Positions 7,758-34,955 of a stretch of DNA of 64,000 bases are shown piece by piece (within the stretch, counting starts at the first letter, position 1; the number at the start of each line of letters is the position of its first letter). The position numbers and the translations under genes are program-made. The notes below the pieces were generated by a model, which saw nothing but the letters and a program-made list of their open reading frames with translations, made no database searches and was not told the origin of the DNA. This DNA comes from a virus (taxonomy: Duplodnaviria; Heunggongvirae; Uroviricota; Caudoviricetes): positions 16,267 through 80,266 of IMG/VR virus record IMGVR_UViG_3300031920_000341; one strand, given 5' to 3'.

Positions 7758-7761
7758 ATAT

Positions 7762-19494: not shown

Positions 19495-19495
19495 C

Positions 19496-19798
19496 TTACC
19501 ATGTATGTGATAACCACAATAAATAATTTTCTATCGATACTCCATGTGGAACATCATTTAACATTTCGTCAAAATCTGTTCCACTTAGATTAAAATCAAC
19601 ACCATCAGATCTCAGTATATAAATAGTTTTCTTTTCATCATCTATAATAACTTCCCCGCCTTTTAGTGCCGTATTATTAATATCATCAATTATATCACTA
19701 TCCAAATATTGCTTTTGTTGTTCCTGATTAGTAGGAAGCGGATCACCAACAATATTGACAGCCCAATCCTCAAAAAACTCTATTTGGAATGTTTTCAT
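19496..19798 (-). CDS. Hypothetical acidic protein
   Basis: Starts MKTFQIEFFEDW; coupled to neighbours. Confidence 0.6.
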   Translation of the reverse strand: MKTFQIEFFEDWAVNIVGDPLPTNQEQQKQYLDSDIIDDINNTALKGGEVIIDDEKKTIYILRSDGVDFNLSGTDFDEMLNDVPHGVSIENYLLWLSHTW

Positions 19799-20169
19799 TG
19801 CGCTTGTGGTAAATCATCATCATCCTCTTCTTGTGTCTGTATTACACCTGCATCGGGAATTTGAAATTCATCCTGTGTTTCGTCTTGTATATCACCAGGT
19901 AATTCCATTGGTAATTCATCTTGCACTTGAGTTTGAGTTTGAATTTTTGGTTCATTAGGATCAGAAATTGTACTTAATTCGCCTTTAAAATCAAGTATGA
20001 CTTCATTAAGTTTTTTAAGAGCTGCGTTTAATCCTGTAGATGCAACTGGTTTTTCACCAAGTAATTCTTGGAATTCTTTATATAAAGCTACAATGTCAGA
20101 ATATTTGTCTGTCATTATACTTATATTCTCATTTAACTTGAGATATTGTTTTAAATTAACGAATGCCAT
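19795..20169 (-). CDS. Hypothetical acidic protein with capsid-targeting-like leader
   Basis: Starts MAFVNLKQYLKLNEN; acidic Q/D/E tail. Confidence 0.6.
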   Translation of the reverse strand: MAFVNLKQYLKLNENISIMTDKYSDIVALYKEFQELLGEKPVASTGLNAALKKLNEVILDFKGELSTISDPNEPKIQTQTQVQDELPMELPGDIQDETQDEFQIPDAGVIQTQEEDDDDLPQAQ

Positions 20170-20218: not shown

Positions 20219-21058
20219 TTATTTGCCGCGTAATGATTCTAGTTTAGACATTTCAGATGGAAATATTATTCTTTTTCCCGGTTCATATTGACAAGCATGT
20301 TCAATATCACGAATTCCTTTTACTAATTTGAATAATCCAGAAGGTTCAACCGATGATTTCTGGTCAGAACCCCATAAATCGCGATTTAGAGTCACGTGGC
20401 GCTCTATCCACGTTACGCCCATAGAAACAGTAGCAAATGTGGTTGCAAGCCCATATTCGTGCCCAGAATAGCCCACTTCTGTTCCATATGTATCTTGTAG
20501 ATGTTTTATGTATAGTAAATTAAGTTCTTCAACTGGTGAAGGATAAGTTGAACATGTATGCATTATTACATCAGGATTAGCATGACATACCGCTTCTACT
20601 ATTTGATCTTCTGTACTCATACCTGTTGACATAATAAGTATATCTGAATTTTCACGTGCATATTTAGCAAGATCCTCATTAACTAAATGTGCTGAAGGTA
20701 TTTTTAATATTAAAGGTGTAGATTCTTTTTTATATTGTTGTAAAAAATCAACTGAATCTTTATCCCAAACCGAAGCGAACCATTTAATTCCTGCACGTAA
20801 ACAAAATTCATCTATTTGATCATATTCGGCTTTATTGAATTCAACTTTATATTTATATTCCATATAGGTCATTTCTCCCCATGGTGTTTGTTTAATCTTA
20901 TTACGTTGTTCAATAGGTACACATAATTCAGGAGTACGTTTTTGAAATTTAACATAATCGCAACCAGCAGCAGCAGCAATTTCAATTAATTGTTTGGCTA
21001 TTCTTAAATCACCATTTGCATTAATACCAATCTCGGCAATAATATTGACTTTTTCCAT
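20219..21058 (-). CDS. neuB: Nonulosonic acid (N-acetylneuraminate-type) synthase, short form without SAF domain
   Basis: IIAEIGINANGD, VKFQKR, LKIPS, STGMST, HTCSTYP, GYSGHE, IERHVTL, GSDQKSSVEP. Confidence 0.95.
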   Translation of the reverse strand: MEKVNIIAEIGINANGDLRIAKQLIEIAAAAGCDYVKFQKRTPELCVPIEQRNKIKQTPWGEMTYMEYKYKVEFNKAEYDQIDEFCLRAGIKWFASVWDKDSVDFLQQYKKESTPLILKIPSAHLVNEDLAKYARENSDILIMSTGMSTEDQIVEAVCHANPDVIMHTCSTYPSPVEELNLLYIKHLQDTYGTEVGYSGHEYGLATTFATVSMGVTWIERHVTLNRDLWGSDQKSSVEPSGLFKLVKGIRDIEHACQYEPGKRIIFPSEMSKLESLRGK

Positions 21059-21075
21059 TAATATGGTTTTTTTAA

Positions 21076-21102
21076 ATTATACAATTAAAAACATTTAAGT
21101 TT
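21076..21102 (-). promoter_or_regulatory. Putative promoter AAACT-N16-TATAAT upstream of neuB
   Basis: Exact motif and spacing. Confidence 0.6.
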
Positions 21103-21410
21103 TATCTTATGAACTCACCTTTTATTGTAAATGATTTCCATTCTATACTTTCATTATTCTGTAGTATTTTTTTTATTTTAAATAATTTACTACTTAATCG
21201 TATATTTGAGTTTACTCGTATAAATGGACCGCCTGTGAATTCTATGGATTTAATACTGTTTCCAGCACTATTTCCAAATCCAAGTGTTGTTGCATAAATA
21301 TCTTTTGCTTTTATTGTTATGGTTTCTTCGTTAATTACATTAACATATCGTTCATCGGCATATTTTGAATAAATAACATGCTTTGAACTATGATTAGTTC
21401 TTTGTGACAT
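21102..21410 (-). CDS. Hypothetical protein
   Basis: 102-aa ORF with ATG start, co-oriented with neighbours. Confidence 0.6.
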   Translation of the reverse strand: MSQRTNHSSKHVIYSKYADERYVNVINEETITIKAKDIYATTLGFGNSAGNSIKSIEFTGGPFIRVNSNIRLSSKLFKIKKILQNNESIEWKSFTIKGEFIR

Positions 21411-21436
21411 ACAAATATTTTGTAAGTTTTTAATAT

Positions 21437-21466
21437 GAAAAGAGGACCAGTCTGGCTGGTCCTCTT
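21437..21466 (-). terminator. Intrinsic terminator
   Basis: AAGAGGACCAG-ccaga-CTGGTCCTCTT then TT, directly after the methyltransferase stop. Confidence 0.8.
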
Positions 21467-21472
21467 GGTAAG

Positions 21473-22390
21473 TTAAATTATTTCTGCTTTGGTTGCTGGA
21501 CGGTATCCTTTCTTTTCAGCAGATTCTTGTGTTATCTTTGTTACTCTTTTACCTGTATAATACCAATACAGTTTTTTGCCTGTTCTAGTTTCACCTGCTT
21601 CATGCATTTCTTCAATTGCTTCTTTATCTTCGCTTACATGTTTTGGAATATCTTCATCAATAGGTTCTATTATATCTAAATGTATAGGTTCATCTGGAAA
21701 ATCAATAATAGGTTCTATAATATCTAAATGTATAGGTTCTATTAAATCAGGATGCTCAATATATTCTGGTTTAATTTTAAATATAGCATATATTATACCT
21801 ACGGTATCACTAGCCCATTTTAATTTATATTTAGTTAATAAACTAAGAATATAATCCATATTTAATAAATTAGCTTTAATTATGTTTTCTTGAGTTATAT
21901 TATCCAATGTATAGTTTGAATCTATGTTAAATGTAACTGGGCCTGATCTATAATTCAAAACAATTTCTTTTGCATTAGAATCATTAAGTTTTGTTAAAAA
22001 CTCATCAGCAATTATTTTATGTGGTAAGTGATGAATAACATTAAAACATGTTATTACATCAGGTGGAGTAATAAATAGATTATCAATATACCCATCACCA
22101 AGATTTAATTCATATTCAAATTCTGTATTGTCTAATACATCTTTAGTTAGCTCTAATGCTTTTTTAACTATATCACTACCTATATATTTTTCAATCTGGT
22201 ATTTATTTAAATATAACATTTCAGGTAACCATCCGCCACCGCATCCTATATCAGTTATTACTTTATTTGTTAAATCAATCTGACTTAACCAACCATTTTC
22301 CCAATTTTTAATTGTTGGGGTTTTGTGTTTATTTGTTGCATGTAATAACCAAGCATGTGTGTTATTCCAAAATTTTTCAATATTAATCAT
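21473..22390 (-). CDS. Class I SAM-dependent methyltransferase with repetitive C-terminal tail
   Basis: ITDIGCGGG, YIGSDI, DVITCFNVIHHL; IEPIHLDI-type repeats. Confidence 0.85.
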   Translation of the reverse strand: MINIEKFWNNTHAWLLHATNKHKTPTIKNWENGWLSQIDLTNKVITDIGCGGGWLPEMLYLNKYQIEKYIGSDIVKKALELTKDVLDNTEFEYELNLGDGYIDNLFITPPDVITCFNVIHHLPHKIIADEFLTKLNDSNAKEIVLNYRSGPVTFNIDSNYTLDNITQENIIKANLLNMDYILSLLTKYKLKWASDTVGIIYAIFKIKPEYIEHPDLIEPIHLDIIEPIIDFPDEPIHLDIIEPIDEDIPKHVSEDKEAIEEMHEAGETRTGKKLYWYYTGKRVTKITQESAEKKGYRPATKAEII

Positions 22391-22457
22391 AACTATTGAT
22401 TTTTTTTATTATTTATATTAAAATCATTATTAATTTATTTCTAATAAACAATATACA

Positions 22458-23276
22458 CTAAAGTGTGAAGTTTTTTAGATCTTCAAGTTGTGTTTTTATA
22501 TCAGGAATATAATATAACATATTGTAGATAGAACATAAAGATTTGTCATGTGCTTCATTTGCATCAACTGGTTCTATTTTTATATTAAGATCATATACTT
22601 CATTAATAATTGAAACCAATTCATATTTAGTAACATGTTCAATAAATAAATGTCGAATACCTTCCCAATATTCACCATTGCTTATAATAGATCCTATTAT
22701 TTCAGCAAGTTTAAGGCAAGTTATACCACTCCAAATATGGTTTTTATATCCTGATACTGTTTTATTTTTATTCGATTTAACCCATTCTAATAGAGATACT
22801 TTATTATGTAATTCTTCTCCAACAATAGATGTTCTTATTACTGTACAGTCTTTTGGTTCACCTAATGCTTTTGATTTACCATAAATATCAGTTGCATCTG
22901 GAGTATGTATTTCAGAATAATTACCTTCTTTGCCACTAAAAACACAATCAGTTGATATGTGAATTAACTCATAATTATAGTTTTTAGTAAATGTATTTAA
23001 GTTATGTGGCAATAGTGAATTAAGCGTAATAAAATCACCATCTGTATATTCTCTAGTAGATAGTCGTTGTGGTATTAATCCAACACAATTTATTATTACA
23101 TCACCTTCATTTAAATTATATGGTAAAAATACTGCTGCTAGTTTGGGTATGGTATTTAAGTGTAAGAAATCCATTTCATTACTTGTTATTGGAATTACTT
23201 CAGTAAATATTGAACTAAGATATTTAAACACATATCTACCTAACATTCCATTAGCACCTAATACTATTATTTTCAT
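22458..23276 (-). CDS. RmlD-like NDP-4-keto-6-deoxyhexose reductase (SDR)
   Basis: VLGANGMLG, HISTDCVFSG, YGKSKALGE, RTSIVG. Confidence 0.9.
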   Translation of the reverse strand: MKIIVLGANGMLGRYVFKYLSSIFTEVIPITSNEMDFLHLNTIPKLAAVFLPYNLNEGDVIINCVGLIPQRLSTREYTDGDFITLNSLLPHNLNTFTKNYNYELIHISTDCVFSGKEGNYSEIHTPDATDIYGKSKALGEPKDCTVIRTSIVGEELHNKVSLLEWVKSNKNKTVSGYKNHIWSGITCLKLAEIIGSIISNGEYWEGIRHLFIEHVTKYELVSIINEVYDLNIKIEPVDANEAHDKSLCSIYNMLYYIPDIKTQLEDLKNFTL

Positions 23277-23282
23277 AGTTTT

Positions 23283-24275
23283 TTATTTTTTTAAAAAATC
23301 ACAATCAGATAACAATTGAAATAAAAATTTATCTGGTTGTATATTATCTTCAGAAGAAAATTCTTCAAAGTCAACCATCTTCGCTTTATCATAAAAATAT
23401 GTGCGATTTATATTCAATTGTGGTAATATTACATAATAATTCTGATTGAATTTATATGTGCTTTGTGATTCATGTTTAGAAATCAAAAGTTCATGTAATT
23501 TCTCACTTTCACGCATTCCAATTTCTTTTATTGTTGTTTCTTCATTACCATATGATTTAATCAAGATATTTGCTAAATCACTTATAAAAAATGATGGCAT
23601 ATTCATAACAAAGATTTCACCACCTACGCTATTTTCAACAGCTTCAAATAGTAAACCAATTGCTTGAGGTAATGTTAAAAAATATCTGGTCATTCTAGTA
23701 TCTGTTATTGTTATTTCATTTTCATTCCTTATTTGATCAATAAAGAATGGTAAAACACTACCATTTGAACCTAATACATTACCACCACGAATACATATAA
23801 AATCTGTATCAGTTGTTAAACTATTTGCTTGAATTGTGATTTTCTCGCCTATTGCTTTAGTCATTCCATATAAATTAGATGGCGATACTGCTTTATCTGT
23901 TGATACATCAATAAATTTAGTTACTTTATATTTAATTGCAATATTAATTAAATTTGTAGTTCCTACTATATTTGTTTTTATTGCTTCTTGTGGTTGATTT
24001 TCACATATGGGTACATGTTTTAATGCAGCTAAATGAAATACATAATCAATATCATTTATACTAAACATTTGATCTAATACATTTAAATCACGTATATCAC
24101 CGATTACAAATTTAATTTTTTCATCATTAAATTTACGTTGCATATTAACTTGTGCAAATTCACCTCGTGAAAATATAATAATCTTTTTTGGTTTTTTATC
24201 TAATAATTGTTTAGTTAATTCATTTCCCCATGAACCAGAACCACCTGTTATTAAAATAGTTTTATCATTAAACAT
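23283..24275 (-). CDS. UDP-GlcNAc 4,6-dehydratase (FnlA/PseB/CapD family)
   Basis: ITGGSGSWG, FHLAALKHVP, STDKAV, YGMTK, GNVLGSNGSV, MTRYF. Confidence 0.92.
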   Translation of the reverse strand: MFNDKTILITGGSGSWGNELTKQLLDKKPKKIIIFSRGEFAQVNMQRKFNDEKIKFVIGDIRDLNVLDQMFSINDIDYVFHLAALKHVPICENQPQEAIKTNIVGTTNLINIAIKYKVTKFIDVSTDKAVSPSNLYGMTKAIGEKITIQANSLTTDTDFICIRGGNVLGSNGSVLPFFIDQIRNENEITITDTRMTRYFLTLPQAIGLLFEAVENSVGGEIFVMNMPSFFISDLANILIKSYGNEETTIKEIGMRESEKLHELLISKHESQSTYKFNQNYYVILPQLNINRTYFYDKAKMVDFEEFSSEDNIQPDKFLFQLLSDCDFLKK

Positions 24276-24284
24276 TGTTTATTA

Positions 24285-25346
24285 TTATTTTCCTAATAGA
24301 ATTTTTATTACTTTATCTGAAACATTAATACAAGAATAATCTTCCATTAAATTCCATGATATTTCTAAATTCGTTATATTATTATAAGAATTAATCATAG
24401 TATCATAATCTATTCCAGTAAGTATAGTTGAACCATTTTCGATTAATTCTTGTCGTTCAGTAGATTCTCGTATTATTAAAGAAGGAATATTAAATATTGT
24501 GGTTTCTTCTGTTACTGTACCCGAATCACTAATAACACAGAATGCATTCTTTTCTAATTTAACAAAATCAAAAAATCCAATAGGTTCAATTAAAATAAGA
24601 TTTTCATTTATTTTAATTTCACTTTTAATTTTAGATTTTGTTCTTGGATGGATTGGAAATATTACTGTTTTATCTAATGATATTGTATTTAAAAATTTAA
24701 ATATTTCTAATAAATTTTTATTATTATCAACATTTTCTGATCTATGGATAGTTGTTAATATATATTCTTTTTGTATATTTAATTTATTTAAAATATTGCT
24801 ATTATCAATTTCCTTTTGATAATAATGTAATACTTCATAAATAGGATTACCTATTTTATAAACAAAATTTTTATGAAACCCTTCATTTAATAGATTATAT
24901 TTACTATTTTCAGTATATGGTAAATTATATGTTGATGTTAAATCAATTATTTTTCTATTGATTTCTTCTGGAACTCTATCATCATAACAACGATTACCAG
25001 CTTCCATATGATAAATTGGAATTTTATATTTTTCACATATAATAGAAAGTAATCCAGTGTTAGTATCACCCAAGATTAATATTTTATCTGGATTTTCTCT
25101 TTTTAATATCTTTTCAAATTCAATAATGGAATTTCCAAAAAATTCACCAAATGAATTGAATAAAAAATCAAAATAATAATTTGGATTTCTTATATTTAAA
25201 TCTTCAAAAAATATAGTACTTAAATTCTTATCATAATTTTGATTTGTGTATACCAATACATGTTCAACTAAGTTATCTAATTTTTTAATTATCAAACTGA
25301 GTCTAATTAATTCTGGTCGCGTTCCTGCTATTGTTAGTACTTTCAT
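24285..25346 (-). CDS. Non-hydrolysing UDP-HexNAc 2-epimerase (FnlC/WbjD-like)
   Basis: GTRPELIRLS, LGDTN, HMEAGNRCYDDRVPEEINR, HRSEN, SDSGTVTEE, RESTERQE. Confidence 0.9.
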   Translation of the reverse strand: MKVLTIAGTRPELIRLSLIIKKLDNLVEHVLVYTNQNYDKNLSTIFFEDLNIRNPNYYFDFLFNSFGEFFGNSIIEFEKILKRENPDKILILGDTNTGLLSIICEKYKIPIYHMEAGNRCYDDRVPEEINRKIIDLTSTYNLPYTENSKYNLLNEGFHKNFVYKIGNPIYEVLHYYQKEIDNSNILNKLNIQKEYILTTIHRSENVDNNKNLLEIFKFLNTISLDKTVIFPIHPRTKSKIKSEIKINENLILIEPIGFFDFVKLEKNAFCVISDSGTVTEETTIFNIPSLIIRESTERQELIENGSTILTGIDYDTMINSYNNITNLEISWNLMEDYSCINVSDKVIKILLGK

Positions 25347-25894
25347 TAAAATTTATATGTTCTACTTTCTACATTAAGTTCATAAAATCCCTTTTTAGCA
25401 ATTTCATCTAATTTCTTAGTTAAATAATTTTTAACTCTGTCTTGCCAAATTTTAGAATTTATTGTTTTTACTTCACCATCATGAATAGTAGAATAATGAT
25501 TTTGTTTAATATATTCAATTGATATTCGATCTAACATCTCACCAATACTATATACAATATCATCACTCATCCAAGTTTCAGTTTCATATTCTTTAACTTT
25601 ACTAAACATTTTATGAATAATCTTATTGATATTTAATTTACTATTAACTCTCATTTCCCCAACAGTTCTGGCCATATTTTCAAAATATGCTATCTTTTTA
25701 TAATCAATATCAACCTCTTTTCTACATGCTATAATTTCCATATTTGCTTTATAACAAGTAAAATTACTATCACATAATATTATTAGATCATTTTGTATAT
25801 TTTCATAAATATCTGAACTATTGATAAATACAATATTTCTTAATTCATCAATTAGATTACGAAAATTTATATTCATTAATATTGCTTCTTTCAT
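25346..25894 (-). CDS. DUF4254-like helical protein
   Basis: SIGEMLDRISIEYIKQNH resembles the DUF4254 motif found in glycan loci. Confidence 0.5.
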   Translation of the reverse strand: MKEAILMNINFRNLIDELRNIVFINSSDIYENIQNDLIILCDSNFTCYKANMEIIACRKEVDIDYKKIAYFENMARTVGEMRVNSKLNINKIIHKMFSKVKEYETETWMSDDIVYSIGEMLDRISIEYIKQNHYSTIHDGEVKTINSKIWQDRVKNYLTKKLDEIAKKGFYELNVESRTYKF

Positions 25895-25925
25895 ATTACT
25901 AATCTTATTTTTATATTATATTAAA

Positions 25926-26483
25926 TTAAATTGATTTGTTTCGATGTAATTTCATTTTATTAATTACAGGAATTTCTAAAAAATCACATATTTTTATTAC
26001 TGAATCATCATCTTGTGTAATATCTATTGTTAATAAATCATGTAATCTATCTTTAAAATAATTCTCAACCATTAATTTATGTGAGTCATAAACAAAAGAA
26101 AACCTATCTTTATTAAAATAATAAGTACCAAATGTTATTAAATGGTGATGTATAGTTTCCTGTTTTGAATTAGGATTATTAATCATACGATCCCAATGCT
26201 TTTTAATTGATACTAACCAACTTGATTTTTTTCTGATTGTATAAATAAATTTACTATTGGGATAAGTTTTATCTACTTGAGGAAATATCATTTCAAATGC
26301 ATTAGTTATACCATGGTATCTGTTTAATGTATCAAATGTGTAAATTCCCTTATACATCTTATTTCTTATTTCTTCACATACTGGACTACCAAAATGTATA
26401 GTTTTTATATTATTGTTATTTAATATACCAGTTAAACTAGATGTAGCAGTTTTTGGTAATCCTATTCCAATTACTTTATTCAT
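25926..26483 (-). CDS. PAPS-dependent sulfotransferase family protein
   Basis: KVIGIGLPKTATSSL (5'-PSB loop), YPNSKFIYTIR...WLVS, ICDFL. Confidence 0.85.
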   Translation of the reverse strand: MNKVIGIGLPKTATSSLTGILNNNNIKTIHFGSPVCEEIRNKMYKGIYTFDTLNRYHGITNAFEMIFPQVDKTYPNSKFIYTIRKKSSWLVSIKKHWDRMINNPNSKQETIHHHLITFGTYYFNKDRFSFVYDSHKLMVENYFKDRLHDLLTIDITQDDDSVIKICDFLEIPVINKMKLHRNKSI

Positions 26484-27236
26484 TTATTCATTAGACATAT
26501 TTTCAGCACCCTTTGGTCTCTTACCTTTTCTTTCAACAGCTTCATAATGATAAACAATAGAATCCATGCTCATTGTAAATTTAGCACCAGCATCATGACA
26601 ACGTTGAAAAAAATTTCTATCTGGTGTACCATTCTTTAATGTTAATTCCCAAGGACCAGCTATTTCCCAAAATCTTTTTGGAATTAAATATGGCATAGTA
26701 TTAGTATTTTTCCAACCACCTCTTTGTTGTTCAGTTTCTAATTTATCAGATTGGTATAGTTTTTTATACAACTCATTAAAATCAGACATATTAAATTTTC
26801 CATATTCTGGAATTCCAAGATTAGCATGAACAACATGTTTACCAATATTTTTAGGATGAATATGTATTGAGTTAACAATATCATTTTCATTGGCATGTTT
26901 CATTAAATTAATTAACCAATCTTTACCAAAATACTGGTCAGTATTAACTAAACCACAATAATTATTTAATTCAAACCCATAATTAAACCCATCATTCATC
27001 ATTCCCCTTAAATTTGGAACATAACCAACATTATCAATAGTTTTATGCTCAATTATATGAATATTTCTATATTGTTTTAAATCTTCTAAATAATAAATAA
27101 CTTCTTGTGAAGGTAACCATGTTACTACAATATAATCAAAATTATCTGTACCTGCATTATTATAAATTGAATCAGTTGAAAATTTTAACATTTCTAATGC
27201 TGTTGAAACACAATTAAAAATTGATACTCTTTCCAT
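26484..27236 (-). CDS. GT-A fold (GT2-like) glycosyltransferase
   Basis: MMNDGF, LVNTDQYFGKDWLINL, FWEIAGPW, D..FFQR, VYHYE. Confidence 0.7.
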   Translation of the reverse strand: MERVSIFNCVSTALEMLKFSTDSIYNNAGTDNFDYIVVTWLPSQEVIYYLEDLKQYRNIHIIEHKTIDNVGYVPNLRGMMNDGFNYGFELNNYCGLVNTDQYFGKDWLINLMKHANENDIVNSIHIHPKNIGKHVVHANLGIPEYGKFNMSDFNELYKKLYQSDKLETEQQRGGWKNTNTMPYLIPKRFWEIAGPWELTLKNGTPDRNFFQRCHDAGAKFTMSMDSIVYHYEAVERKGKRPKGAENMSNE

Positions 27237-27811
27237 TACTTTAATTTTATTTTTTCTTTTATTGCTAAAAATGCATCATCGCAATTTAGTTCACTGAATA
27301 TATAAATATCATATCCATGTTTCTCATATAATGATGGATCTAAATTAATTAAATGTTTTTGATATTTATTATTTGTTTTTGTTATACATAAATCATTATT
27401 ACTTTTTCCAACTGGTCCACCTAAAATAGCATATTTATAATTCATATTTTCAATTCTATTAAATATGATATCGTGTTCTTCTTGTGTTATATGTTCTAAT
27501 GTATGATGACAAATAATTACATCAAAATCATCTTTAATATCATAATCTAATATATTCATACATATATAATCGCCAGGAGGACCATTTTTTCTTCTCCATA
27601 ATACATCAGCTTCAAAAATATCAATACCCTTTATATCTTTACTATTAAATACAGAATATAATAAATCATTTTCTGGAAAATGCATAGGATGTGAAACAAA
27701 TGAACCACATCCTAAATCTAAAACAGTTGTTATACTGTTTAAATCTAACTTTTCTTTAAGCATATTAATTATTGAGTGAATTCTTTTCATAATTTTTAAT
27801 TTATTTTCCAA
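27236..27811 (-). CDS. Class I SAM-dependent methyltransferase
   Basis: VLDLGCG, GIDIF, FDVIICHHTLEH. Confidence 0.85.
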   Translation of the reverse strand: MENKLKIMKRIHSIINMLKEKLDLNSITTVLDLGCGSFVSHPMHFPENDLLYSVFNSKDIKGIDIFEADVLWRRKNGPPGDYICMNILDYDIKDDFDVIICHHTLEHITQEEHDIIFNRIENMNYKYAILGGPVGKSNNDLCITKTNNKYQKHLINLDPSLYEKHGYDIYIFSELNCDDAFLAIKEKIKLK

Positions 27812-28419
27812 ATACTCATACTACGCTTCCATCTATCTTCATTATGAATTTCTAATGGTTCACCTAAATCAAAGGGTTCAATTTCTAAATTTATTGGTTT
27901 CCATCCACATTCCATTTTTAATTCCTTTGGAGTTAATTCATTGTTCTTTTTAACCCACCTTTGTTCAGTTGCTAATAAATATGTAGATTTACTATCCTTA
28001 AAATTTTTAAGTGTTCGTGATACAAAATCATTAGGTAAATGAAATAAACAATCTCTACAAATTATTAAATCGGTTTTAGGTAATATTTCTTCACACATAT
28101 CAAATTCAATAAATTTAACATTTGGATTTTCTTCTTTATTTCTTTGAATAATTAAATCATTAATATCATATCCTATATAATCAATATTTCTATTAGGTAA
28201 ATCTAACAAGTATATCCAATTTTGATATACGCCACTTGGACTATCACTAATAGATGTAATATTATATTTTTTTAATATATCATTTATAAAATCAATAGTT
28301 CCTTCCTCTTTGATATGTTTATCAACTGAACCCGGTCCATTTGGTGGTAATTTTTTCCCCACCTGTAAGTTATAATAATACTTTTGTGATTCTTTTAATT
28401 TCATAATTATTTCTCCCAA
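27796..28419 (-). CDS. SAM-dependent methyltransferase-like protein
   Basis: GPGS, SISDSPSG, YIGYDI, DLIICRDCLFHL, INLEIEPF. Confidence 0.8.
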   Translation of the reverse strand: MGEIIMKLKESQKYYYNLQVGKKLPPNGPGSVDKHIKEEGTIDFINDILKKYNITSISDSPSGVYQNWIYLLDLPNRNIDYIGYDINDLIIQRNKEENPNVKFIEFDMCEEILPKTDLIICRDCLFHLPNDFVSRTLKNFKDSKSTYLLATEQRWVKKNNELTPKELKMECGWKPINLEIEPFDLGEPLEIHNEDRWKRSMSIWKIN

Positions 28420-28934
28420 ATATATGTTCCAATTTTTACTAATCCATTTGGATTAAATCCTACATGAATTGATTTATAATTAAATAGACTTGTCAATTCT
28501 TCATCTTTCCATTGATATAAATGACTTTCATATGGATTTCCTATCTTATTACCATCTTGTTTACATAAAGAAATTGGTATTGATAAATATATTTTTTTAA
28601 TGTGCTTTATGGCCTCTTTCATAAATATAATAGCATTATCATAAGTTAAATGTTCTAATACATCACCTAATATCATTATATCATATTTCTTTTTTGTATA
28701 ATCAAAATTAAGCATATTAACATTAAATAAATTATCATAATGCTCATCTAATTTAAATTTTACTATATTAGGTTTCCATATTTCAACACCATCTATTGAT
28801 TTAACTTTACCTTTGAGTTTTTTACCCCATTTTCCTTCACCTGCTCCAATATCTAAAACATTAGTATCGGATGTTTTTAAAATTTCTTGGAATATTAATT
28901 CTATTCCACCATCGGGTTGTTGTGATTCTGGCAT
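28407..28934 (-). CDS. Class I SAM-dependent methyltransferase
   Basis: VLDIGAGEGKWG, DGVEIW, YDIMILGDVLEHL, NPYESH. Confidence 0.85.
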   Translation of the reverse strand: MPESQQPDGGIELIFQEILKTSDTNVLDIGAGEGKWGKKLKGKVKSIDGVEIWKPNIVKFKLDEHYDNLFNVNMLNFDYTKKKYDIMILGDVLEHLTYDNAIIFMKEAIKHIKKIYLSIPISLCKQDGNKIGNPYESHLYQWKDEELTSLFNYKSIHVGFNPNGLVKIGTYIWEK

Positions 28935-28937
28935 AAC

Positions 28938-29804
28938 TTAGTTTATTATTTTTTTTATGATATCTCTTACTGAGTTATCAAATTGCATGTAATTATCAGC
29001 TGTAACTTTATCATTATATGGTCTCGAATGACTAGGATTTCCACCATACCAATGGATTCCTACTACATTTTTATGTATCATTTGACTATTATTTTCTGAA
29101 AAAGTCATTGCTGCAGATTGTTTAATATTTGTTTTAGCAAAAGGAAAGACAATATCTTCATCCATTTTATGTATTTTTAAATCTGTAAATTTATTTATAA
29201 TTGCATATAAAGATGAATAGCCAATTGCATTTGTACCACATGACTCATATACAGCAGGATTATATTTTTTAATACTATTGTGATATATCTCCTCATATAG
29301 TCTATTCTTGCCGTCTAGTGTGACCTTAGAGACCATGAAGGATACTGGGATATAATTCTTCCAATAGTCATAATTACTAAGATTAACATTGGCATCCCAA
29401 TCTATTAATTCATTTTCATCTAATGTATTACAAAAAAGAATATCCATATCAGCAACAATACAAGTTCGTGTAGCTAATAAATACCAATTAAGTATATCTT
29501 TAAACTGAACATTACATATATCTTTAATATTCTTAAGTTCGATTGGAACTATATTTTCTATGTTTATTATATTCAATTTAGGTATATCAAATAGCTTTAA
29601 TCTATAATCTTCACCATTATAAAATTCATCATCTTGTTTTGGTTCTTTTATTGATTTATTCCATTTATTAGTATTAGGCTTTTTATCATCTAATATTAAG
29701 TTAATAGTCCATTCTGGGTTATGAAAGCTAAATGACTTTATTGTCAAATATCTTAAAAATGACATTGATTGATTTCCCCAGAAAAAATATATTTGCTTTT
29801 CCAT
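28938..29804 (-). CDS. DXD-motif (GT32-like) glycosyltransferase
   Basis: IYFFWG, SF..HNPEW, KDIL, ADMDILF, GIHWYGG. Confidence 0.75.
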   Translation of the reverse strand: MEKQIYFFWGNQSMSFLRYLTIKSFSFHNPEWTINLILDDKKPNTNKWNKSIKEPKQDDEFYNGEDYRLKLFDIPKLNIINIENIVPIELKNIKDICNVQFKDILNWYLLATRTCIVADMDILFCNTLDENELIDWDANVNLSNYDYWKNYIPVSFMVSKVTLDGKNRLYEEIYHNSIKKYNPAVYESCGTNAIGYSSLYAIINKFTDLKIHKMDEDIVFPFAKTNIKQSAAMTFSENNSQMIHKNVVGIHWYGGNPSHSRPYNDKVTADNYMQFDNSVRDIIKKIIN

Positions 29805-29811
29805 GTTCGCT

Positions 29812-30585
29812 TTATTTTTTATTTACATGTATAATAGATTCTTGTTGAATTTCAGCATACAGTAGATTATTCTTCTTTGTTAAAACTGGTTCATATATGG
29901 TTGGTTTATGATGTTGATGTAAAACAAATGGATTATCTATCATTACGATATTCATGTTCATTCGTTTTATCCTTAATACAAATTCCATATCATCTCTACC
30001 TATTCCATATGCAAATCGTTCATCAAATCCACCAAGTTTATCTAGATCCTTTTTGCTTATAGCACTACAAAAGTGTAATAATGCTGGTCTATACTTACTG
30101 TGTTGATACCAAGCAGAGTCTTTAGTATTAAATAATCTTCTATTTTTTATTGGTTGTATTACATCAAAAGCTTTTTTTCCTTTACTTATATTTTCAAATT
30201 CCTTTTTATTGCTTGCATAACAACCAAATACCAAATATTTGTTATCTTCTATTTCACGATTTACTGTTTTAATTAATTCACCAATATGTAAACATTCGGG
30301 ATTTTGAATTATTACAACATCACCAGTTACTTTAGCGAAGCCTATATTATATGGTACAGATGGATTAACCCACCATTTATCTTTTTTTGAAATTTTAATT
30401 ACAGTTATATCTAATTTGTTAAATAAATGAGGCATATCATCTATATTATGTTCATCTGAGCTATTATCATTAACTATGATTATTTCTAAATTATCATAAT
30501 GTTGATTCATAATAGAATTAAGTGTATTTATGAGATGGATCCTACGATTATAATATGACATTACTATAGAAATTTTCATATACAT
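29812..30585 (-). CDS. GT2 family glycosyltransferase
   Basis: ISIVMSYYNR, IIIVNDNS, GGFDERF..GIGRDD, HQHH. Confidence 0.9.
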   Translation of the reverse strand: MYMKISIVMSYYNRRIHLINTLNSIMNQHYDNLEIIIVNDNSSDEHNIDDMPHLFNKLDITVIKISKKDKWWVNPSVPYNIGFAKVTGDVVIIQNPECLHIGELIKTVNREIEDNKYLVFGCYASNKKEFENISKGKKAFDVIQPIKNRRLFNTKDSAWYQHSKYRPALLHFCSAISKKDLDKLGGFDERFAYGIGRDDMEFVLRIKRMNMNIVMIDNPFVLHQHHKPTIYEPVLTKKNNLLYAEIQQESIIHVNKK

Positions 30586-30586
30586 A

Positions 30587-31237
30587 TTAATTTTTTATCC
30601 ATGTTGTAAATCCCATATTTTTACTACTACTTTTAGCTAATTTATGAGATTCTCTCCAAATTCTACCAATATCATTTACGATTATATTACCCTCTGAAAT
30701 TGAATTATATTCAGGATAATTTAGCATAATATAATTAGACTCAATTTGTCTTAATTGTAATTCTGGACAATTATTAAATAATAATTTTTTTGCCATACTT
30801 TGTGTCCAACTGCCTTTAAATAAACCAGGAGAAAGTCTAATTCTAAATTTATTTGAATTAAAGAGATATGCATTTAAACTTACACCAAGAATATTATTAT
30901 CTGAATCAATCATTTTTATAAGTGTATTAATATCAACTGGTCTATTTAATAACCAATCATCTTCAAGATTAAATACATACTTAGATATTGCATTTTTCCA
31001 TACCCAACTTAATGCTTTAGGAAAATTACCTTTTTTAGGAAAATTACATTTTACTGTATTAAAGTATTGTTTTGCTACATTAACAACATCAATTTGGTTT
31101 GTTGTTGGTATTGGATCAATATTTATGTATAATGTACAATCTTTAATATCTATTCCATATAAATTTTTACTAAAACTAGAATATGTTTTATCAATTAAAT
31201 CAGGTCGTACTGTTGCTGTTGTTGTAAATGATATCAT
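30587..31237 (-). CDS. GT-A fold glycosyltransferase-like protein
   Basis: TATVRPDL, INID, YVFNLEDDW, DIGRIW. Confidence 0.65.
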   Translation of the reverse strand: MISFTTTATVRPDLIDKTYSSFSKNLYGIDIKDCTLYINIDPIPTTNQIDVVNVAKQYFNTVKCNFPKKGNFPKALSWVWKNAISKYVFNLEDDWLLNRPVDINTLIKMIDSDNNILGVSLNAYLFNSNKFRIRLSPGLFKGSWTQSMAKKLLFNNCPELQLRQIESNYIMLNYPEYNSISEGNIIVNDIGRIWRESHKLAKSSSKNMGFTTWIKN

Positions 31238-31241
31238 AATT

Positions 31242-33251
31242 TTATTTTTTTTCTATTTCTATTAATGGTTTATAATCAAGAAATTGATTTAATTTAGAAT
31301 TATTAGTTAATGATATAAGATTAAATCCTTTATTTTTTAATGATAAAAAATTTGCTTCAACTTTTTTAAATCTATCATTATACCAATTTGGGTTATTATC
31401 ATGTGGATTCCTTGTATCATGTACATTTGACCAAAAATGATTTTTATTATCATCATAACTTAAACTTACAGCATAAATATAATACATAGTTTCAAATCTT
31501 TTATTACCAAAAATATATTTATCAAATATATCTATAGCTGTTGAAGTTGAATCTGGGTATTTTGATCTATCGATTCTATTAAATAATTTAAGTTCACCAC
31601 TTCGTATAAGTTTAGATGTTAATCTATGGTGTTTATTATTAGAGGCATGTACTAACCAATCACTACATACTAAATTCATACTCTTTAAATCAGCATTGCT
31701 TTCAATTAATTCTAATAAAATATCAACATCATTAAAAAATAAGTAATCAGTTTTACAATGTAACCACGTACGATTAATACCAATAGTAATTATATTATCA
31801 GGTATTTTGTTAATATCAAGATTAGTTAAATTTTTATCATTACCTAAAATTAATATTTTCCTTCTAATTTTACTATCAATAATTTTATCTGCTTTAATAT
31901 ACCTTTTCATTTTTCTGATTTCATGTATATCAGTAAATTTATTAACATATGGTATAAATTCATTTATTAATGAATTATTAGTTATAGATACTATATCATA
32001 ACCATTTTCAACCATATTTTTTACTGACATTACTATACTGTAATATTCTGAATTAATTGTATCTTTATCAATTTCACGTATTGGTTTAAAATCTGTATTT
32101 TCCCATATTAATGAATTTGGTGTATATACAAAATCCATTCCACCTAAATAAAATTTACAGTCATAATCTAAAAATATAATATTTGTAAAGATTTCTATTA
32201 TAGAAGATACATTATTTGATTCATATTGTGTTTTATCATTATTATATATTGTTAAATTTTTTTGTCTAAGTAAATCTTTTACGACATTAAATCTTTTACT
32301 ACTTTTTGCTGAAGTTAATAGTTTATTTGATGCGATTAAACGATATTCTTTTATTGTATTATGTTTATATTTTGATATTTCTATTAATTGATTTATATCA
32401 TCAACATAATAATAATCTGGTTTATTTATTAGCCATGATCTATTTAACCCAACTACTATAATATCTCTTGGTAATTTATTAATATTAATATTACGCATAC
32501 TTTTACTATCACTAAGTAATAAAATATTCATAGGTGGTTTTACTATTTTATCTTCTAATATATGTTCTGTTAATTCATTAGTGTCTATGTTATAATTATT
32601 TACAATACTATTTTCTAAGAAATTATTAAGTTGAGATTCTAAATCTATATCAAGTACATCATTTTCTAAATCAAAAAATATTGTATCTTTATTATAAAGG
32701 TTTAATGTTAATTTTTCAATTTCACTCACTTTTGCAATAGCAATATAGTGTGACATTTCAAATACATCAGGATGGTCTTGTCTTCTATAATAATCAGTAT
32801 TTGTTAATGGTGTACCATGTATTCCATCTATTGATTTATAAAAACATAAAAATGGTGAAGATTTTGGTTCCTTTTTACATAATAATGATTTAGCTTTTTC
32901 TTTTAATATCATAGTATATGCAGATTCAACATGTTCCCATTTTCTTTCAGGATATGTTAAATATAATGTTAATATAAAATCTGATGATTTTAATGTTAAT
33001 TCATTTATGAAATGAGATAATACTTCTTTTGTAGATGCAGTATCAGAAGCAATTTTATCTGGTCTAATAATATAATTAACATGATTTTCTTTACAATAGT
33101 TAATTATTTCTTCATCATCAGTACTAACATAAGTATTTTCTTTAAGTTTTTCTGGAATTATGCTTAAAGTATATGGCAATAATTTCCTGTTTTTGAATGG
33201 TGCACCTTTTGATCCACGTCTTGCTGGTATTAAAATGTATAAGTTATTCAT
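31242..33251 (-). CDS. neuA: CMP-nonulosonate synthetase (NeuA) fused to two Maf/DUF115-like transferase domains
   Basis: IPARRGSKGAPFKN, VSTDD, RRQD, DID; then two repeats (ILLLSD...VGLNR...YYVDD...LGGMDF and ILILGN...IGINR...FFND...YAVSL...HFW). Confidence 0.85.
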   Translation of the reverse strand: MNNLYILIPARRGSKGAPFKNRKLLPYTLSIIPEKLKENTYVSTDDEEIINYCKENHVNYIIRPDKIASDTASTKEVLSHFINELTLKSSDFILTLYLTYPERKWEHVESAYTMILKEKAKSLLCKKEPKSSPFLCFYKSIDGIHGTPLTNTDYYRRQDHPDVFEMSHYIAIAKVSEIEKLTLNLYNKDTIFFDLENDVLDIDLESQLNNFLENSIVNNYNIDTNELTEHILEDKIVKPPMNILLLSDSKSMRNININKLPRDIIVVGLNRSWLINKPDYYYVDDINQLIEISKYKHNTIKEYRLIASNKLLTSAKSSKRFNVVKDLLRQKNLTIYNNDKTQYESNNVSSIIEIFTNIIFLDYDCKFYLGGMDFVYTPNSLIWENTDFKPIREIDKDTINSEYYSIVMSVKNMVENGYDIVSITNNSLINEFIPYVNKFTDIHEIRKMKRYIKADKIIDSKIRRKILILGNDKNLTNLDINKIPDNIITIGINRTWLHCKTDYLFFNDVDILLELIESNADLKSMNLVCSDWLVHASNNKHHRLTSKLIRSGELKLFNRIDRSKYPDSTSTAIDIFDKYIFGNKRFETMYYIYAVSLSYDDNKNHFWSNVHDTRNPHDNNPNWYNDRFKKVEANFLSLKNKGFNLISLTNNSKLNQFLDYKPLIEIEKK

Positions 33252-33861
33252 TGAATAATTCTAATTTTCCCTTAGGTACACCAGTTATAAGACTATGTTC
33301 ACTTAAATTAGAAAGATGTGTACCATTTTTTTTTAACTGTTCATATAAGTATTTATAATCTTTACTTATTCTTTCAACATAACCACGTTCAACTAAATTA
33401 TGTTTTCCATCATTGGCATAAAAATGATTATCGGTAAAATCAACACCAAGCATACTAATATGCTTAGCTCCCATTTTATATGCTAATATAATTGCAATAA
33501 ATGGTGAGTTATTACTGTAATCTAATACCATTGCATCATCTTTTAATGTTGCTAAATGTTTTGTGCCAAGTTCAAATAAAACTTGTTTCTTCATATCATG
33601 TAATTTCCAACCCTTTATTTGGGTAAATACATATTTAGCATTACTATTATATACCGATTTATATCTAATACCTTGAAATTTAGCTGGGTGGTCAACAACT
33701 AATAAATATGTCGGATCGATAAAACGACCTATATCATTAACACCAATAGTTATTAGTTGTTTATAATTTGGTATTTTTACAATATCTTTAACAGAAGTTC
33801 CACATCCTAATACAAGGATTTTTTCATCTTTATGAATATCCTTGAATTCTGATATATTCAT
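33244..33861 (-). CDS. Maf/DUF115 (MAF_flag10-like) nonulosonyltransferase-like protein
   Basis: [51 protein letters not shown]. Likely start ATG 33861. Confidence 0.75.
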
Positions 33862-33882
33862 ATGGTATAAAACATTTATATT

Positions 33883-33937
33883 ATTATATAGAAAAAAATT
33901 CAAAAGATTTAAACTTTATTATATTTTTTTATATAAT
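33883..33937. promoter_or_regulatory. Back-to-back divergent promoters
   Basis: Minus AATCT-N16-TATAAT (33909-33883) faces the glycan cluster; plus AAACT-N16-TATAAT (33911-33937) faces dnaJ. Confidence 0.6.
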
Positions 33938-33941
33938 AGGC

Positions 33942-34898
33942 ATGGTAAAAGATTATTACAAAATATTAGAAGTAAAAAAAGATACATCTCAAAAGGATAT
34001 TAAGTCAGCTTACAGAACATTGGCTAAGAAATATCATCCAGATAAAAATCCAGATAATAAAGAATCGGAAGCTAAATTTAAAGAGATTGTGGAAGCATAT
34101 GAAGTACTGAGCGATAAAACTAAACGTGCCGAATATGATAGACCAAAAAATTATAATGGTTTTGGTAATGGATTCACTGGAGCATATGGTAGACCATTTA
34201 ATAATGGCCGTGGATATAGTGGAGCAGAATTTGCTAAAATGGTTAGGATTAGACAAGTAAAGGAACAATTAACATTAGGATTTTTATCAAGAGTTGAATT
34301 AAAAAACATAATGCTTGGTGAAACTATTAATATTAATTACAAGAGAGAAACAGTATGTTTAGAATGTAGACATATGGTAAATAAAAATAATTGTAAAGTT
34401 TGTAATGGTAGTGGAATTATAGTTGAAAATACAAATGCTACATTTGAAATAAACATTTCAAAAAATAGATATACAGTAGAAATTATTAATGGTATATCTA
34501 CACTTCGTTTAGAATTATCTGAACGTGGACATCAAGCATTGGTTGAAGATACAATAGTAACCGGAAATTTAATTATACGAGTTGAAATAATAACTAATAA
34601 AAATGTTGAATTAAATTTCTTTAATGGTAATATTATACATTTAGTAGATATCAACCTGGTAGATTTATTAGACTCCCATATAAAATTAAAGACTATACAT
34701 GATAAAGAAATCAAAATGTCTTTAGAAAATAAACAAATTGCAAGTAATGGGAAATTACGTATACCAAATTATGGATTACCTAACGCTCAAGCCTTTGGTG
34801 ATTATTTTTTCAAGTTAAATATCAAATTACCTGACTTTAGTAAGCTATCAAAAACTAATAGACGTAGGTTAATAAACATTTTAAATAAACTAGAATAA
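33942..34898 (+). CDS. dnaJ: DnaJ-family co-chaperone
   Basis: J domain DYYKILEV...YHPDKN...AYEVLSD, G/F-rich linker, single Zn site (CLEC...CKVCNGSG), DnaJ C-domain. Confidence 0.92.
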
Positions 34899-34922: not shown

Positions 34923-34955
34923 AAGCGTTGGTTTTAATTAATCAGCGCTTTTTTT
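34923..34955 (+). terminator. Intrinsic terminator
   Basis: AAGCGTTGGTT...AATCAGCGCTT plus T tract after dnaJ. Confidence 0.7.

Follow-up and report, generated by a model that had tools for sequence, protein, structure and literature searches.

Gene content of the island

The window analysed here is a 64,000-nt stretch of DNA corresponding to bases 16267-80266 of the 208,266-bp linear IMG/VR virus record IMGVR_UViG_3300031920_000341 (estimated completeness, 78%), which comes from an uncultured phage; all coordinates are window positions unless the record (G000) is named. The window contains an island of approximately 14 kb, in which 17 open reading frames (ORFs), o1 to o17, lie on the minus strand at 20219-33903 with intergenic gaps of -16 to +67 nt. 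A first-pass annotation had described 17 co-oriented genes for a decorated nonulosonic acid glycan between the baseplate and capsid operons, and our analysis confirmed both the gene number and the placement. On one side, a gp5-like baseplate hub gene (18331-19074, plus strand; phrog_37871 and phrog_430) closes the baseplate module. On the other side are three plus-strand genes, namely a gene for a full-length DnaJ that is divergent from o17 (33942-34898; J domain, Cys-rich region and C-terminal domain; DnaJ, 94.1 bits, plus DnaJ_C), a gp21-like prohead protease gene (35047-37167) and a gp23-like major head protein gene (37170-38900), the latter pair being matched by phrog_207/phrog_138. SbcCD-like and DnaB-like genes lie past the major head protein gene. 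The nearest database relatives of the protease are huge uncultured phages with approximately 25% identity, and the phage is a distant T4-like jumbo phage.

A simple hydropathy scan revealed no membrane segment in any island protein (highest 19-residue Kyte-Doolittle mean, 1.58). A search of the 208-kb record for PF02397, PF00953, PF01943 and PF04932, which represent initiating transferases (Bac_transf and WecA type), Polysacc_synt flippases and Wzy_C, gave no match. Both results agree with the first-pass annotation, which had reported no flippase, polymerase, lipid-carrier transferase or membrane protein and had proposed a soluble cytoplasmic pathway. Since the island is membrane-free and no flippase, Wzy, ligase or initiating transferase was found, it fits cytoplasmic protein glycosylation of the flagellin/Maf kind. 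Our analysis supports the view that the island is a membrane-free, self-contained system for sugar activation, transfer and decoration that is native to the phage.

The expected NeuB is encoded by o1 (20219-21058), a short nonulosonate synthase of 279 aa that consists of the TIM barrel alone. It matched PF03102 at 204.8 bits (cut-off, 22.1), covering model positions 1-236 of 241. The scores on the NeuB_NnaB and PseI models were 195 and 150 bits, respectively, both under the equivalog cut-offs, and the PDB matches were 8h2c (PseI; 99 bits) and 6ncs (88 bits). The C-terminal SAF (antifreeze-like) domain of canonical NeuB, PseI and LegI is missing, as the alignment stops at model position 259 of 329; short NeuB forms have a precedent in PDB 6ncs (290 aa). 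The possibility that the SAF domain had been split off into an ORF downstream of NeuB was rejected, since three downstream ORFs gave no SAF match.

The contiguous genes o5, o4 and o6 had been regarded as a dehydratase/reductase/2-epimerase trio serving nonulosonate synthesis; the three enzymes were verified, but the precursor role was not. o5 (23283-24275) encodes an inverting UDP-GlcNAc 4,6-dehydratase/5-epimerase of the PseB/CapE/FnlA class (Polysacc_synt_2, 332.5 bits; PseB, 320.9 bits; FnlA, 246.8 bits), with PDB matches to 2gn4 (245 bits), 4j2o (240 bits), CapE (225 bits) and Megavirus Mg534 (4tqg; 170 bits). o4 (22458-23276; 272 aa) encodes an RmlD-type NAD(P)H 4-ketoreductase (RmlD_sub_bind, 70.2 bits; rmlD, 65 bits; PDB 2ggs, 58.6 bits). 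o6 (24285-25346) encodes a CapG/WbvD-type non-hydrolysing 2-epimerase of UDP-6-deoxy-L-N-acetylhexosamine (UDP-6-deoxy-L-HexNAc); it scored 241.6 bits on the wecB model (cut-off, 210), and its best PDB match was Staphylococcus aureus CapG 7ya2 at 324 bits, as opposed to 117 bits for the NeuC-type 6vlb and 110 bits for WecB 1f6d. Judging from their sequences, o5, o4 and o6 turn UDP-GlcNAc into a UDP-2-acetamido-2,6-dideoxy-L-hexose of the L-RhaNAc/L-QuiNAc type, with the stereochemistry predicted. Because o6 is of the CapG type and not of the NeuC type, the trio is assigned to the 6-deoxy-L-HexNAc route, as in Megavirus, rather than to the canonical nonulosonate precursor route.

Several steps of nonulosonate synthesis are missing. 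A NeuC-type hydrolysing 2-epimerase is absent, o6 scoring 69 bits on the NeuC model (cut-off, 236); family searches of the island and record found no PseG-type hydrolase; PF01041, the DegT aminotransferase family, had zero matches in the 208-kb record; and Pfam detected no hexapeptide (acetyl)transferase in the island. Related phages do carry DegT aminotransferases and acetyltransferases. In the absence of NeuC, PseG and an aminotransferase, NeuB would use one of two substrates, a hexosamine supplied by the host or the island's own 6-deoxy-L-HexNAc. The second option would need an unrecognised release step and would give a 3,5,9-trideoxy nonulosonate.

Activation of the nonulosonate is assigned to o16 (31242-33251; 669 aa), in which a CMP-nonulosonate synthetase domain (aa 2-210) is followed by approximately 460 residues that Pfam did not recognise. 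The synthetase domain aligned over aa 2-205/210 with CMP-Neu5Ac synthetase 6ifd (E 3.2e-13) and with 1eyr (E 7.9e-9), and o16 scored 44 bits on the PseF model, under the equivalog cut-off. The NeuA fusion proposed at first was thus upheld, with the qualification that the fusion partner is a tandem pair of Cst-like domains, D1 (aa ~242-437; degenerate) and D2 (aa ~463-668). When aa 201-669 were used as the query of an exhaustive HMMER search, 69 relatives were retrieved from 1.84 billion representative proteins, most of them stand-alone proteins of approximately 200 aa that aligned to D2; a search of viral contigs for related loci with o16 and its homologue P0002 as queries returned nothing. 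Alignment of D2 with 22 relatives revealed invariant G, N, D, H-F and S positions, with an invariant His in HFW, a possible equivalent of the catalytic His188 of Cst-II. The family profile of D2 matched sialyltransferases exclusively in the PDB, the match to Cst-II being weak (E 0.012). With an AlphaFold2 (AF2) model of D2 (pLDDT 93.5), all 16 Foldseek matches at E<=1e-3 were bacterial sialyltransferases (Cst-II/Cst-I and Pasteurella multocida 9c08), followed by GT29; the top matches were Cst-II/Cst-I (E 1.8e-5; TM ~0.5; ~15% identity). On the basis of this model, D2 carries a GT42-type (Cst-I/Cst-II) sialyltransferase fold. D1 is homologous to D2 (hhalign, 99.5%; E 7.5e-23) and departs from the family at the invariant Gly (LLLSDS in place of ILGND) and at the HFW His (NSLIW); we read it from these substitutions as a degenerate D2-type copy.

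o17 (33244-33861) encodes a putative nonulosonate transferase of 205 aa that corresponds to the core of Maf and has an MptE-like fold. Its probable start is the ATG at 33861 and the ORF opens with a TTG at 33903, giving a length of 205-219 aa. The Pfam match to MptE-like (E 9e-4; 19.5 bits) was under the cut-off of 34.6, and o17 also matched phrog_4603, annotated as 'alpha-2,3-sialyltransferase'. It is more distant from the D2 family (hhalign, 87.8%) and retains the G-x-G-x-S loop and NHFY. The top PDB match of an AF2 model, built with eight orthologues as the alignment (pLDDT 89.4), was Magnetospirillum Maf 5mu5 (E 1e-5; TMq 0.60), followed by archaeal MptE and Cst-II. The Maf-like protein of the earlier reading is consequently retained at the level of the fold but not as a full Maf: o17 covers part of the 632-aa 5mu5 (TMt 0.22) and does not have the N- and C-terminal domains of Maf (~600 aa in total). 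Proteins of 170-280 aa resembling o17 are common in uncultured phages and present in some giant viruses, and all are uncharacterised.

The remaining genes mainly encode transferases and decorating enzymes. About four GT-A glycosyltransferases had been anticipated, and four were recovered by different means. o14 (29812-30585; 257 aa) is a GT2 enzyme with a direct match to Glycos_transf_2 (54.6 bits), the sole PF00535 match in the record. o13 (28938-29804; 288 aa) is GT32-like (Gly_transf_sug, DXD), with an Atlas feature score of 0.97 to clusters that are 96% PF04488, a structural TM of 0.79-0.83 and no direct Pfam match, and o15 (30587-31237; 216 aa) showed a TM of 0.75-0.85 to GT2 clusters in the Atlas structures. 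o9 (26484-27236; 250 aa) is probably a divergent GT2-like enzyme; it has no direct Pfam match, but Glycos_transf_2 was matched by eight of the 27 homologues sampled from 175 with 49-89% identity (best E 1.8e-5; identity of the 27 sampled, 49-74%), and a weak full-length match to chondroitin synthase was also observed. A domain shared by o9 and the C-terminus of a relative's protease fusion was judged spurious (34% over 79 aa, gapped).

S-adenosylmethionine (SAM)-dependent methyltransferases are encoded by o3 (21473-22390; 305 aa; Methyltransf_23, 30.2 bits; Methyltransf_11, 24.1 bits), o10 (27236-27811; 191 aa; Methyltransf_11, 26.7 bits; cut-off, 21.2) and o12 (28407-28934; 175 aa; Methyltransf_23, 36.3 bits; faint match to the Pse-associated methylase TIGR03587). 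These three exceeded Pfam cut-offs, whereas the fourth methyltransferase of the first reading, o11 (27796-28419; 207 aa), matched Methyltransf_2/25/12/23 at 17-20 bits, below every cut-off, and is a possible member. Homologues of o3 adjoin NeuB in seven other viral loci. The predicted sulfotransferase was verified in o8 (25926-26483; 185 aa), which is of the 3'-phosphoadenosine 5'-phosphosulfate (PAPS) type (Sulfotransfer_4, PF17784; 60.5 bits; E 2.7e-16). No adenosine 5'-phosphosulfate kinase for phage-made PAPS was found in the record, and PAPS must therefore be supplied by the host. o2 (21102-21410; 102 aa) and o7 (25346-25894; 182 aa) had no match in Pfam, NCBIfam or PHROG. A DUF4254-like protein proposed earlier was not recovered, as o2, o7, o9, o13 and o15 had no Pfam match at E<=5.

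A conserved slot with variable cargo

Relatives of the short NeuB number in the thousands in metagenomes (269-299 aa), and 112 IMG/VR contigs carry one at 50-65% identity; 80 viral loci were kept for neighbourhood counts. NeuA lies within 10 kb of NeuB in 66 of these 80 loci and an o17-like gene in 14. Thirteen loci come from related phages (L054, L075-L077, L079, L080 and L082-L088), and in these the island occupies the same slot, between the hub gene and the DnaJ/protease/major head protein genes, with NeuB beside the baseplate hub gene in 13/13. The synteny across related phages that the first-pass annotation had proposed to examine was thus observed. Where the locus extends far enough, o17-like and NeuA genes were found in seven related loci, and a small D2-like transferase in seven.

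The fullest related loci contain the major head protein, protease and DnaJ genes and then, divergently, an o17-like gene, NeuA, a 470-795-aa protein, six to eight variable proteins of 200-270 aa, often an o15-like glycosyltransferase, and NeuB; from there the order continues through a pair of ORFs (approximately 100 aa each) and a free-standing D2-like transferase to the baseplate hub. Homologues of o15 (34-48% identity) occur in L054, L076, L083, L085 and L086, mostly just upstream of NeuB. A Pfam tally of 69 proteins, 68 of which were variable ORFs of the relatives, gave 11 GT2 enzymes, six hexapeptide/PglD-type acetyltransferases, five DegT proteins, four methyltransferases, two GT29-like and two MptE-like proteins, and one each of WbqC, AsnB-like amidotransferase and RgpF. 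The slot is therefore conserved, with the Maf core, NeuA, NeuB and small sialyltransferase as anchors, and the cargo is hypervariable. In the phage analysed here, gene annotation places a reductase branch where the relatives have an amino branch, NeuA is fused to a duplicated D2-type transferase, and a sulfotransferase is added.

The closest relative by capsid (L004; 60% identity) has the same order of baseplate genes, hub, protease and major head protein. Its hub-protease interval contains just two minus-strand ORFs, and the one on the protease side is an orthologue of o17 (39% identity); neither DnaJ nor any of the remaining 16 island genes is present in this 61.5-kb fragment. DnaJ is kept between the island and the protease gene in the six related loci whose fetched DNA extends there.

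Other observations on these loci concern individual ORFs. The 470-795-aa protein after NeuA in the relatives was considered as an unfused D1-D2, but it gave no match to the D2 hidden Markov model (HMM), and the L085 copy has a GT29 motif match. The ORF pair between NeuB and the small sialyltransferase (L085:10885-11473; also L075-L077 and L086-L088) encodes proteins of approximately 100 aa each with no Pfam match; the first is Cys-rich (C-x3-C ... C-x2-C-G-C ... S-C-N), and both are absent from this phage. Small ORFs of the window (o2, o7 and those at 19075-20169) did not match the relatives' Cys-rich small ORFs and were rejected as their counterparts. In this phage, the interval from the baseplate hub to NeuB contains three small minus-strand ORFs (19075-20169; 139, 100 and 124 aa; the third acidic and Q/E/D-rich), which take the place of the small sialyltransferase of the relatives and had no family matches. 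L085 also encodes a 209-aa protein (5986-6612) that matches positions 24-98 of 360 of the DegT model only, corresponding to a truncated or split aminotransferase, and a PhyH-type dioxygenase (7217-8002).

These data bear on the origin of the island. The first-pass annotation had named host contamination as a condition that would undermine its reading, and the bacterial type of the enzymes, together with the metagenomic source of the record, might suggest contamination or a chimeric assembly. This explanation is effectively refuted: the GC content of the island (0.21-0.34) and its gene density are like those of the flanks, the island is flanked by phage structural genes on either side, and 13 independent viral contigs carry an island in the same slot. 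Moreover, a quick maximum-likelihood tree showed that viral NeuB sequences, three contigs from metagenome-assembled or single-amplified genomes (MAG/SAG) and the window sequence split from an actinomycete clade with 99% support, and the short NeuB is accordingly placed by phylogeny in a mainly viral clade. The best cellular matches were the three MAG/SAG contigs (53-61%) and a Streptosporangiaceae clade (~50%); the window NeuB fell outside the subclade of its syntenic relatives in this tree. SAF-less NeuB proteins of the same length form a tight clade in Streptosporangiaceae and allies (L092-L168), sometimes with a NeuA-like gene approximately 1 kb upstream. A megablast search of the island against 50,697 phage records gave zero nucleotide-level matches, and no paralogues of island genes were found elsewhere in the genome.

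The neighbourhood counts also raise the possibility of a soluble or small-molecule product, whereby host nucleotide-sugar pools would be boosted or diverted or a free or secreted decorated oligosaccharide would be made, with no phage-encoded macromolecular acceptor. NeuB and NeuA without precursor enzymes are widespread in viral contigs (NeuA in 66/80 loci), often beside the auxiliary gene phoH, found approximately 1.2 kb from the short NeuB in over 30 viral contigs that are otherwise unrelated (among them L009-L035), and the pathway of the island is incomplete. However, the presence of six or seven transferase modules together with decorating enzymes implies that the product is assembled on an acceptor, and no genes of the slot are better conserved than the Maf-core and sialyltransferase-like anchors, which makes this explanation unlikely. 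The 233-aa protein beside NeuB in many viral contigs was tried as a pathway enzyme and proved to be PhoH; in this phage, PhoH (G000:C1:4794-5495) is approximately 31 kb from the island.

Expression signals and the acceptor of the glycan

Approximately 30 phage gene starts in the record (G000), among them that of the prohead protease, are preceded by a TAAATAA(T)AAAA motif whose position peaks at 25 nt upstream; the motif is a candidate late promoter of the T4 type. Other genes that it precedes are one of the baseplate module (13388) and several whose products exceed 900 aa. Within the island, a late-promoter-like motif (TATAAATA / ATAAATAATAAAAAA; 22410-22417, minus strand) is located 25 nt upstream of o3, and its extended form (ATAAATAATAAAAAA) and spacing are identical to those of the protease gene (35019-35026). 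The statement that the island uses the phage promoter motif consequently applies cleanly to o3 and weakly to o13, but not to o17. Enrichment of TATAAATA in the window was rejected (27 found versus 28.6 expected); therefore, position relative to gene starts alone is informative. An intrinsic-terminator-like hairpin follows o3 (21440-21466, minus strand; 11-bp stem with 6 GC pairs and a T-run), and sigma-70-like TATAAT elements were found upstream of o17, o7 and o1. A (T)TGTATAA element resembling an extended -10 box is conserved in the divergent spacer between DnaJ and the o17-like gene in L054, L075, L077 and L086; as a shared promoter of that spacer, TGTATAA was rejected for this phage, in which it is absent before o17, though present before o1.

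We propose, with a probability of roughly one in two, that the island is a phage-owned, wholly cytoplasmic system that glycosylates virion proteins. In this mechanism, a nonulosonic acid would be formed by o1 from phosphoenolpyruvate and an N-acetylhexosamine and then activated with CTP by the synthetase domain of o16. Three sialyltransferase-fold modules (the Maf core o17, o16-D2 and the degenerate o16-D1) are candidate CMP-sugar transferases, the four GT-A enzymes could add UDP-sugars, and the three or four methyltransferases and the sulfotransferase could decorate the product. Glycan synthesis may be initiated in the cytoplasm by o17, acting on Ser/Thr residues of a structural protein of the phage much as Maf acts on flagellin, and the fused NeuA-transferase may channel CMP-nonulosonate to chain extension, with D1 perhaps retained as a binding domain. 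The outcome would be an acidic, methylated and sulfated coat on the particle, and the composition of this coat would vary among phages, as the cargo framed by the conserved anchors is exchanged. Enzyme order, expression timing and product stereochemistry are inferred.

Four observations favour the particle as the target: the placement of the island between virion modules is invariant across the clade, the Maf-core gene is kept beside the protease gene in L004 where the rest is missing, the best structural match of o17 is Maf, a protein O-glycosyltransferase, and the late-type motif is common to o3 and the protease gene. The glycosylated fibrils of Megavirus and the glycosylated capsid and tail-tube proteins of mycobacteriophages are precedents that point the same way. 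Other observations weigh against the particle as the target. No sequence feature identifies the acceptor, and adjacency to virion genes is circumstantial. The nearest matches of o16-D2, Cst-II and Cst-I, are enzymes that we take to sialylate lipooligosaccharide (LOS) and not protein. o17 is the catalytic core of Maf alone, and the flanking domains, which are thought to bind flagellin in Maf, are missing. The late motif is missing before o17, the first gene of the island, and no more than one or two island genes show signs of late co-expression with virion genes. The nonulosonate pathway lacks a NeuC/PseG-type hydrolase and an aminotransferase; since the record is 78% complete and from an uncultured phage, the missing genes could lie elsewhere.

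Some of the same evidence points to the host surface. Cst-II-type sialyltransferases and GT2 enzymes use lipid-linked acceptors at the cytoplasmic face together with host export machinery; the lack of a flippase, polymerase or membrane protein is thus no bar to action on host glycans. The island enzymes might modify lipid-linked glycans of the host (lipid A-core, undecaprenyl-PP O-units or capsule) or its surface proteins from the cytoplasmic face, with export by the host, and the benefit would be a block to superinfection or progeny that do not stick to debris. The Cst-II/Cst-I-like GT42 fold of o16-D2 is in line with such a role, Cst-II presumably sialylating LOS, and enzymes of the GT2 and GT32 families are a typical component of O-antigen and capsule loci. 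The missing late motif before the first island gene and the TATAAT elements before o17, o7 and o1 are compatible with early expression, and clusters of glycosyltransferases in jumbo cyanophages have been interpreted in this way (Iyer et al.; PMC7824862). On the other hand, the island lies between virion modules in every related phage, the 208 kb contain no initiating transferase, flippase, polymerase, ligase or Gtr-type membrane protein, the hypervariable cargo would require matching host acceptors, the gene content is lytic and T4-like with no sign of lysogeny in the window, and the best structural match of o17 is a protein glycosyltransferase. Host-surface remodelling is therefore possible but less probable than virion glycosylation. 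Of the observations from which the first-pass annotation had inferred a glycan on virion proteins (or DNA) rather than host serotype conversion, the placement was upheld, and the argument from absent export genes was not.

DNA had been named as another target. T4-like phages glycosylate their DNA, and Straboviridae have glycosyltransferase clusters for poly-arabinosylated 5-hydroxycytosine (PMC13326640), so that a distantly T4-like phage might transfer the sugars to hydroxylated pyrimidines, as in T4, RB69 or DLP3. The sole PF00303 thymidylate-synthase homologue in the record, however, is a genuine ThyA (249 bits to S. aureus thymidylate synthase) that keeps the dUMP-recognising Asn of Y-x-N-H; no dCMP-modifying homologue was found, and DNA is therefore an unlikely target. 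Characterised Maf- and Cst-like folds act on protein or glycan acceptors, and the account of the Straboviridae clusters is silent on nonulosonate enzymes (PMC13326640). We consider DNA hypermodification highly improbable.

The nature of the host bears on flagellin as an acceptor. A Shine-Dalgarno core at -20 to -5 was found in just 4 of the 214 predicted genes of the whole record, and the GC content is approximately 27%, which suggests a Shine-Dalgarno-independent host such as Bacteroidota. To our knowledge, Bacteroidota have no flagella; flagellin is thus an unlikely target. Elsewhere at the locus, a terminator-like hairpin lies 3' of DnaJ (34923-34950). The prohead protease ORF is 706 aa long, with protease-family matches confined to the first ~340 residues; as its relatives are 676-785 aa, the long C-terminal extension is of conserved length.

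The combination of a conserved slot and swappable cargo suggests diversifying selection on the glycan, which is the signature of a surface exposed to an adversary. In a more speculative form of virion glycosylation, which we regard as rather doubtful, the clade would carry a particle 'serotype locus', with a fixed slot, conserved anchors, swappable cargo and a phage-specific acidic coat; in this phage, NeuB would condense the 6-deoxy-L-HexNAc into a 5-acylamino-3,5,9-trideoxy (7-hydroxy) nonulosonate that is then methylated and sulfated. The sole known natural case of a 5-acylamino-3,5,9-trideoxy nonulosonate, as cited in PMC7371886, is the lipopolysaccharide of Fusobacterium nucleatum 25586, where it occurs with 6-deoxy-L-AltNAc (Vinogradov et al. 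2017). Should the glycan be borne by the particle, self-made sugar coats of the bacterial type, as in giant viruses, would extend to tailed phages; the coat here would be sialic-acid-like, methylated and sulfated. This would matter for phage stability and adhesion, for escape from recognition by hosts or grazers, and for how the immune system recognises therapeutic phages. A further interest lies in the soluble enzymes of this compact island, which can be expressed and assayed without phage culture; they include the minimal Maf core, the fusion of NeuA with sialyltransferase domains, the rare family of 200-aa sialyltransferases, the CapG-type epimerase and the small sulfotransferase.

Comparison with known glycosylation systems

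The flagellin/Maf islands of Campylobacter, Aeromonas and Magnetospirillum (5mu5) share with the phage island a soluble cytoplasmic system with a nonulosonate synthase, CMP-synthetase, MptE-fold transferase and methyltransferases, and they are likewise hypervariable in gene content. Unlike these islands, the phage island encodes a ~200-aa core of the 632-aa Maf and no aminotransferase or acetyltransferase, nor is a flagellin gene known from it, although no search aimed at one was made; it adds GT-A enzymes, a sulfotransferase and the 6-deoxy-L-HexNAc route, and it lies between virion modules. The LOS sialylation locus of Campylobacter jejuni (neuB/neuC/neuA with GT42 Cst-I/Cst-II) has NeuB, NeuA and Cst-like transferases in common with the phage island, in which NeuC is absent and the transferase is fused to NeuA and duplicated, one copy being degenerate. 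In contrast to the C. jejuni GT42 enzymes, the D2 family is rare (69 in 1.84 billion).

The o5-o4-o6 trio has bacterial counterparts in CapE/CapF/CapG of S. aureus and WbvB/WbvR/WbvD of Vibrio cholerae O37, which make UDP-L-FucNAc and UDP-L-QuiNAc, respectively (o6-CapG, 324 bits; o5-CapE, 225 bits). WbvR is presumably an RmlD-type reductase, like o4, and CapF is, we assume, a two-domain reductase larger than o4. The bacterial routes feed Wzx/Wzy-dependent capsule or O-antigen synthesis, whereas Wzx and Wzy are absent here.

Among phages, mycobacteriophages encode glycosyltransferases whose targets are proteins of the capsid and tail tube (Freeman et al. 2023, cited in PMC10877033). As that study is cited there, one or two glycosyltransferases act with host sugars and, unlike in the island, no nonulosonate chemistry, sugar-nucleotide synthesis or sulfation is involved. 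The jumbo cyanophage clusters are likewise variable, contain multiple glycosyltransferases and occur in large phages; Iyer et al. (2021) proposed the host outer polysaccharide as their target and did not mention nonulosonate, sialic-acid, pseudaminic or legionaminic enzymes (PMC7824862). A full-text literature search found no paper on phage-encoded nonulosonate glycosylation, which is not proof of absence.

A viral parallel to the trio is mg534-mg539 of Megavirus chilensis, which follows the same three-enzyme logic (an inverting dehydratase, an RmlD-like 3-epimerase/4-reductase of ~270 aa and a WbvD-like 2-epimerase); as in the island, the genes are virus-encoded and adjoin glycosyltransferases. 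o4 (272 aa) belongs to the size class of Mg535 (270 aa; PMC9614988). Mg534, Mg535 and Mg536 yield UDP-L-RhaNAc and UDP-L-QuiNAc, and the virion fibrils bear L-RhaNAc, 4-O-methyl-L-RhaNAc and L-QuiNAc (mg534-539; PMC9614988), so that the analogy with giant-virus glycosylation drawn in the first-pass annotation is strengthened by a trio that mirrors mg534-536, whose sugars coat the virion. Megavirus differs in being a eukaryotic giant virus, for which that review mentions no nonulosonic, sialic, legionaminic or pseudaminic acid (PMC9614988), and the o4-o6 products here are predicted from genes alone. Each enzyme class of the island, the glycan clusters of giant viruses and the glycosylation of mycobacteriophage virions were already known. 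This case adds an architecture of conserved slot and variable cargo in a jumbo T4-like clade, a NeuA-(Cst-like)x2 fusion with one degenerate domain, and a Megavirus-type 6-deoxy-L-HexNAc route beside NeuB without an amino branch, together with sulfation.

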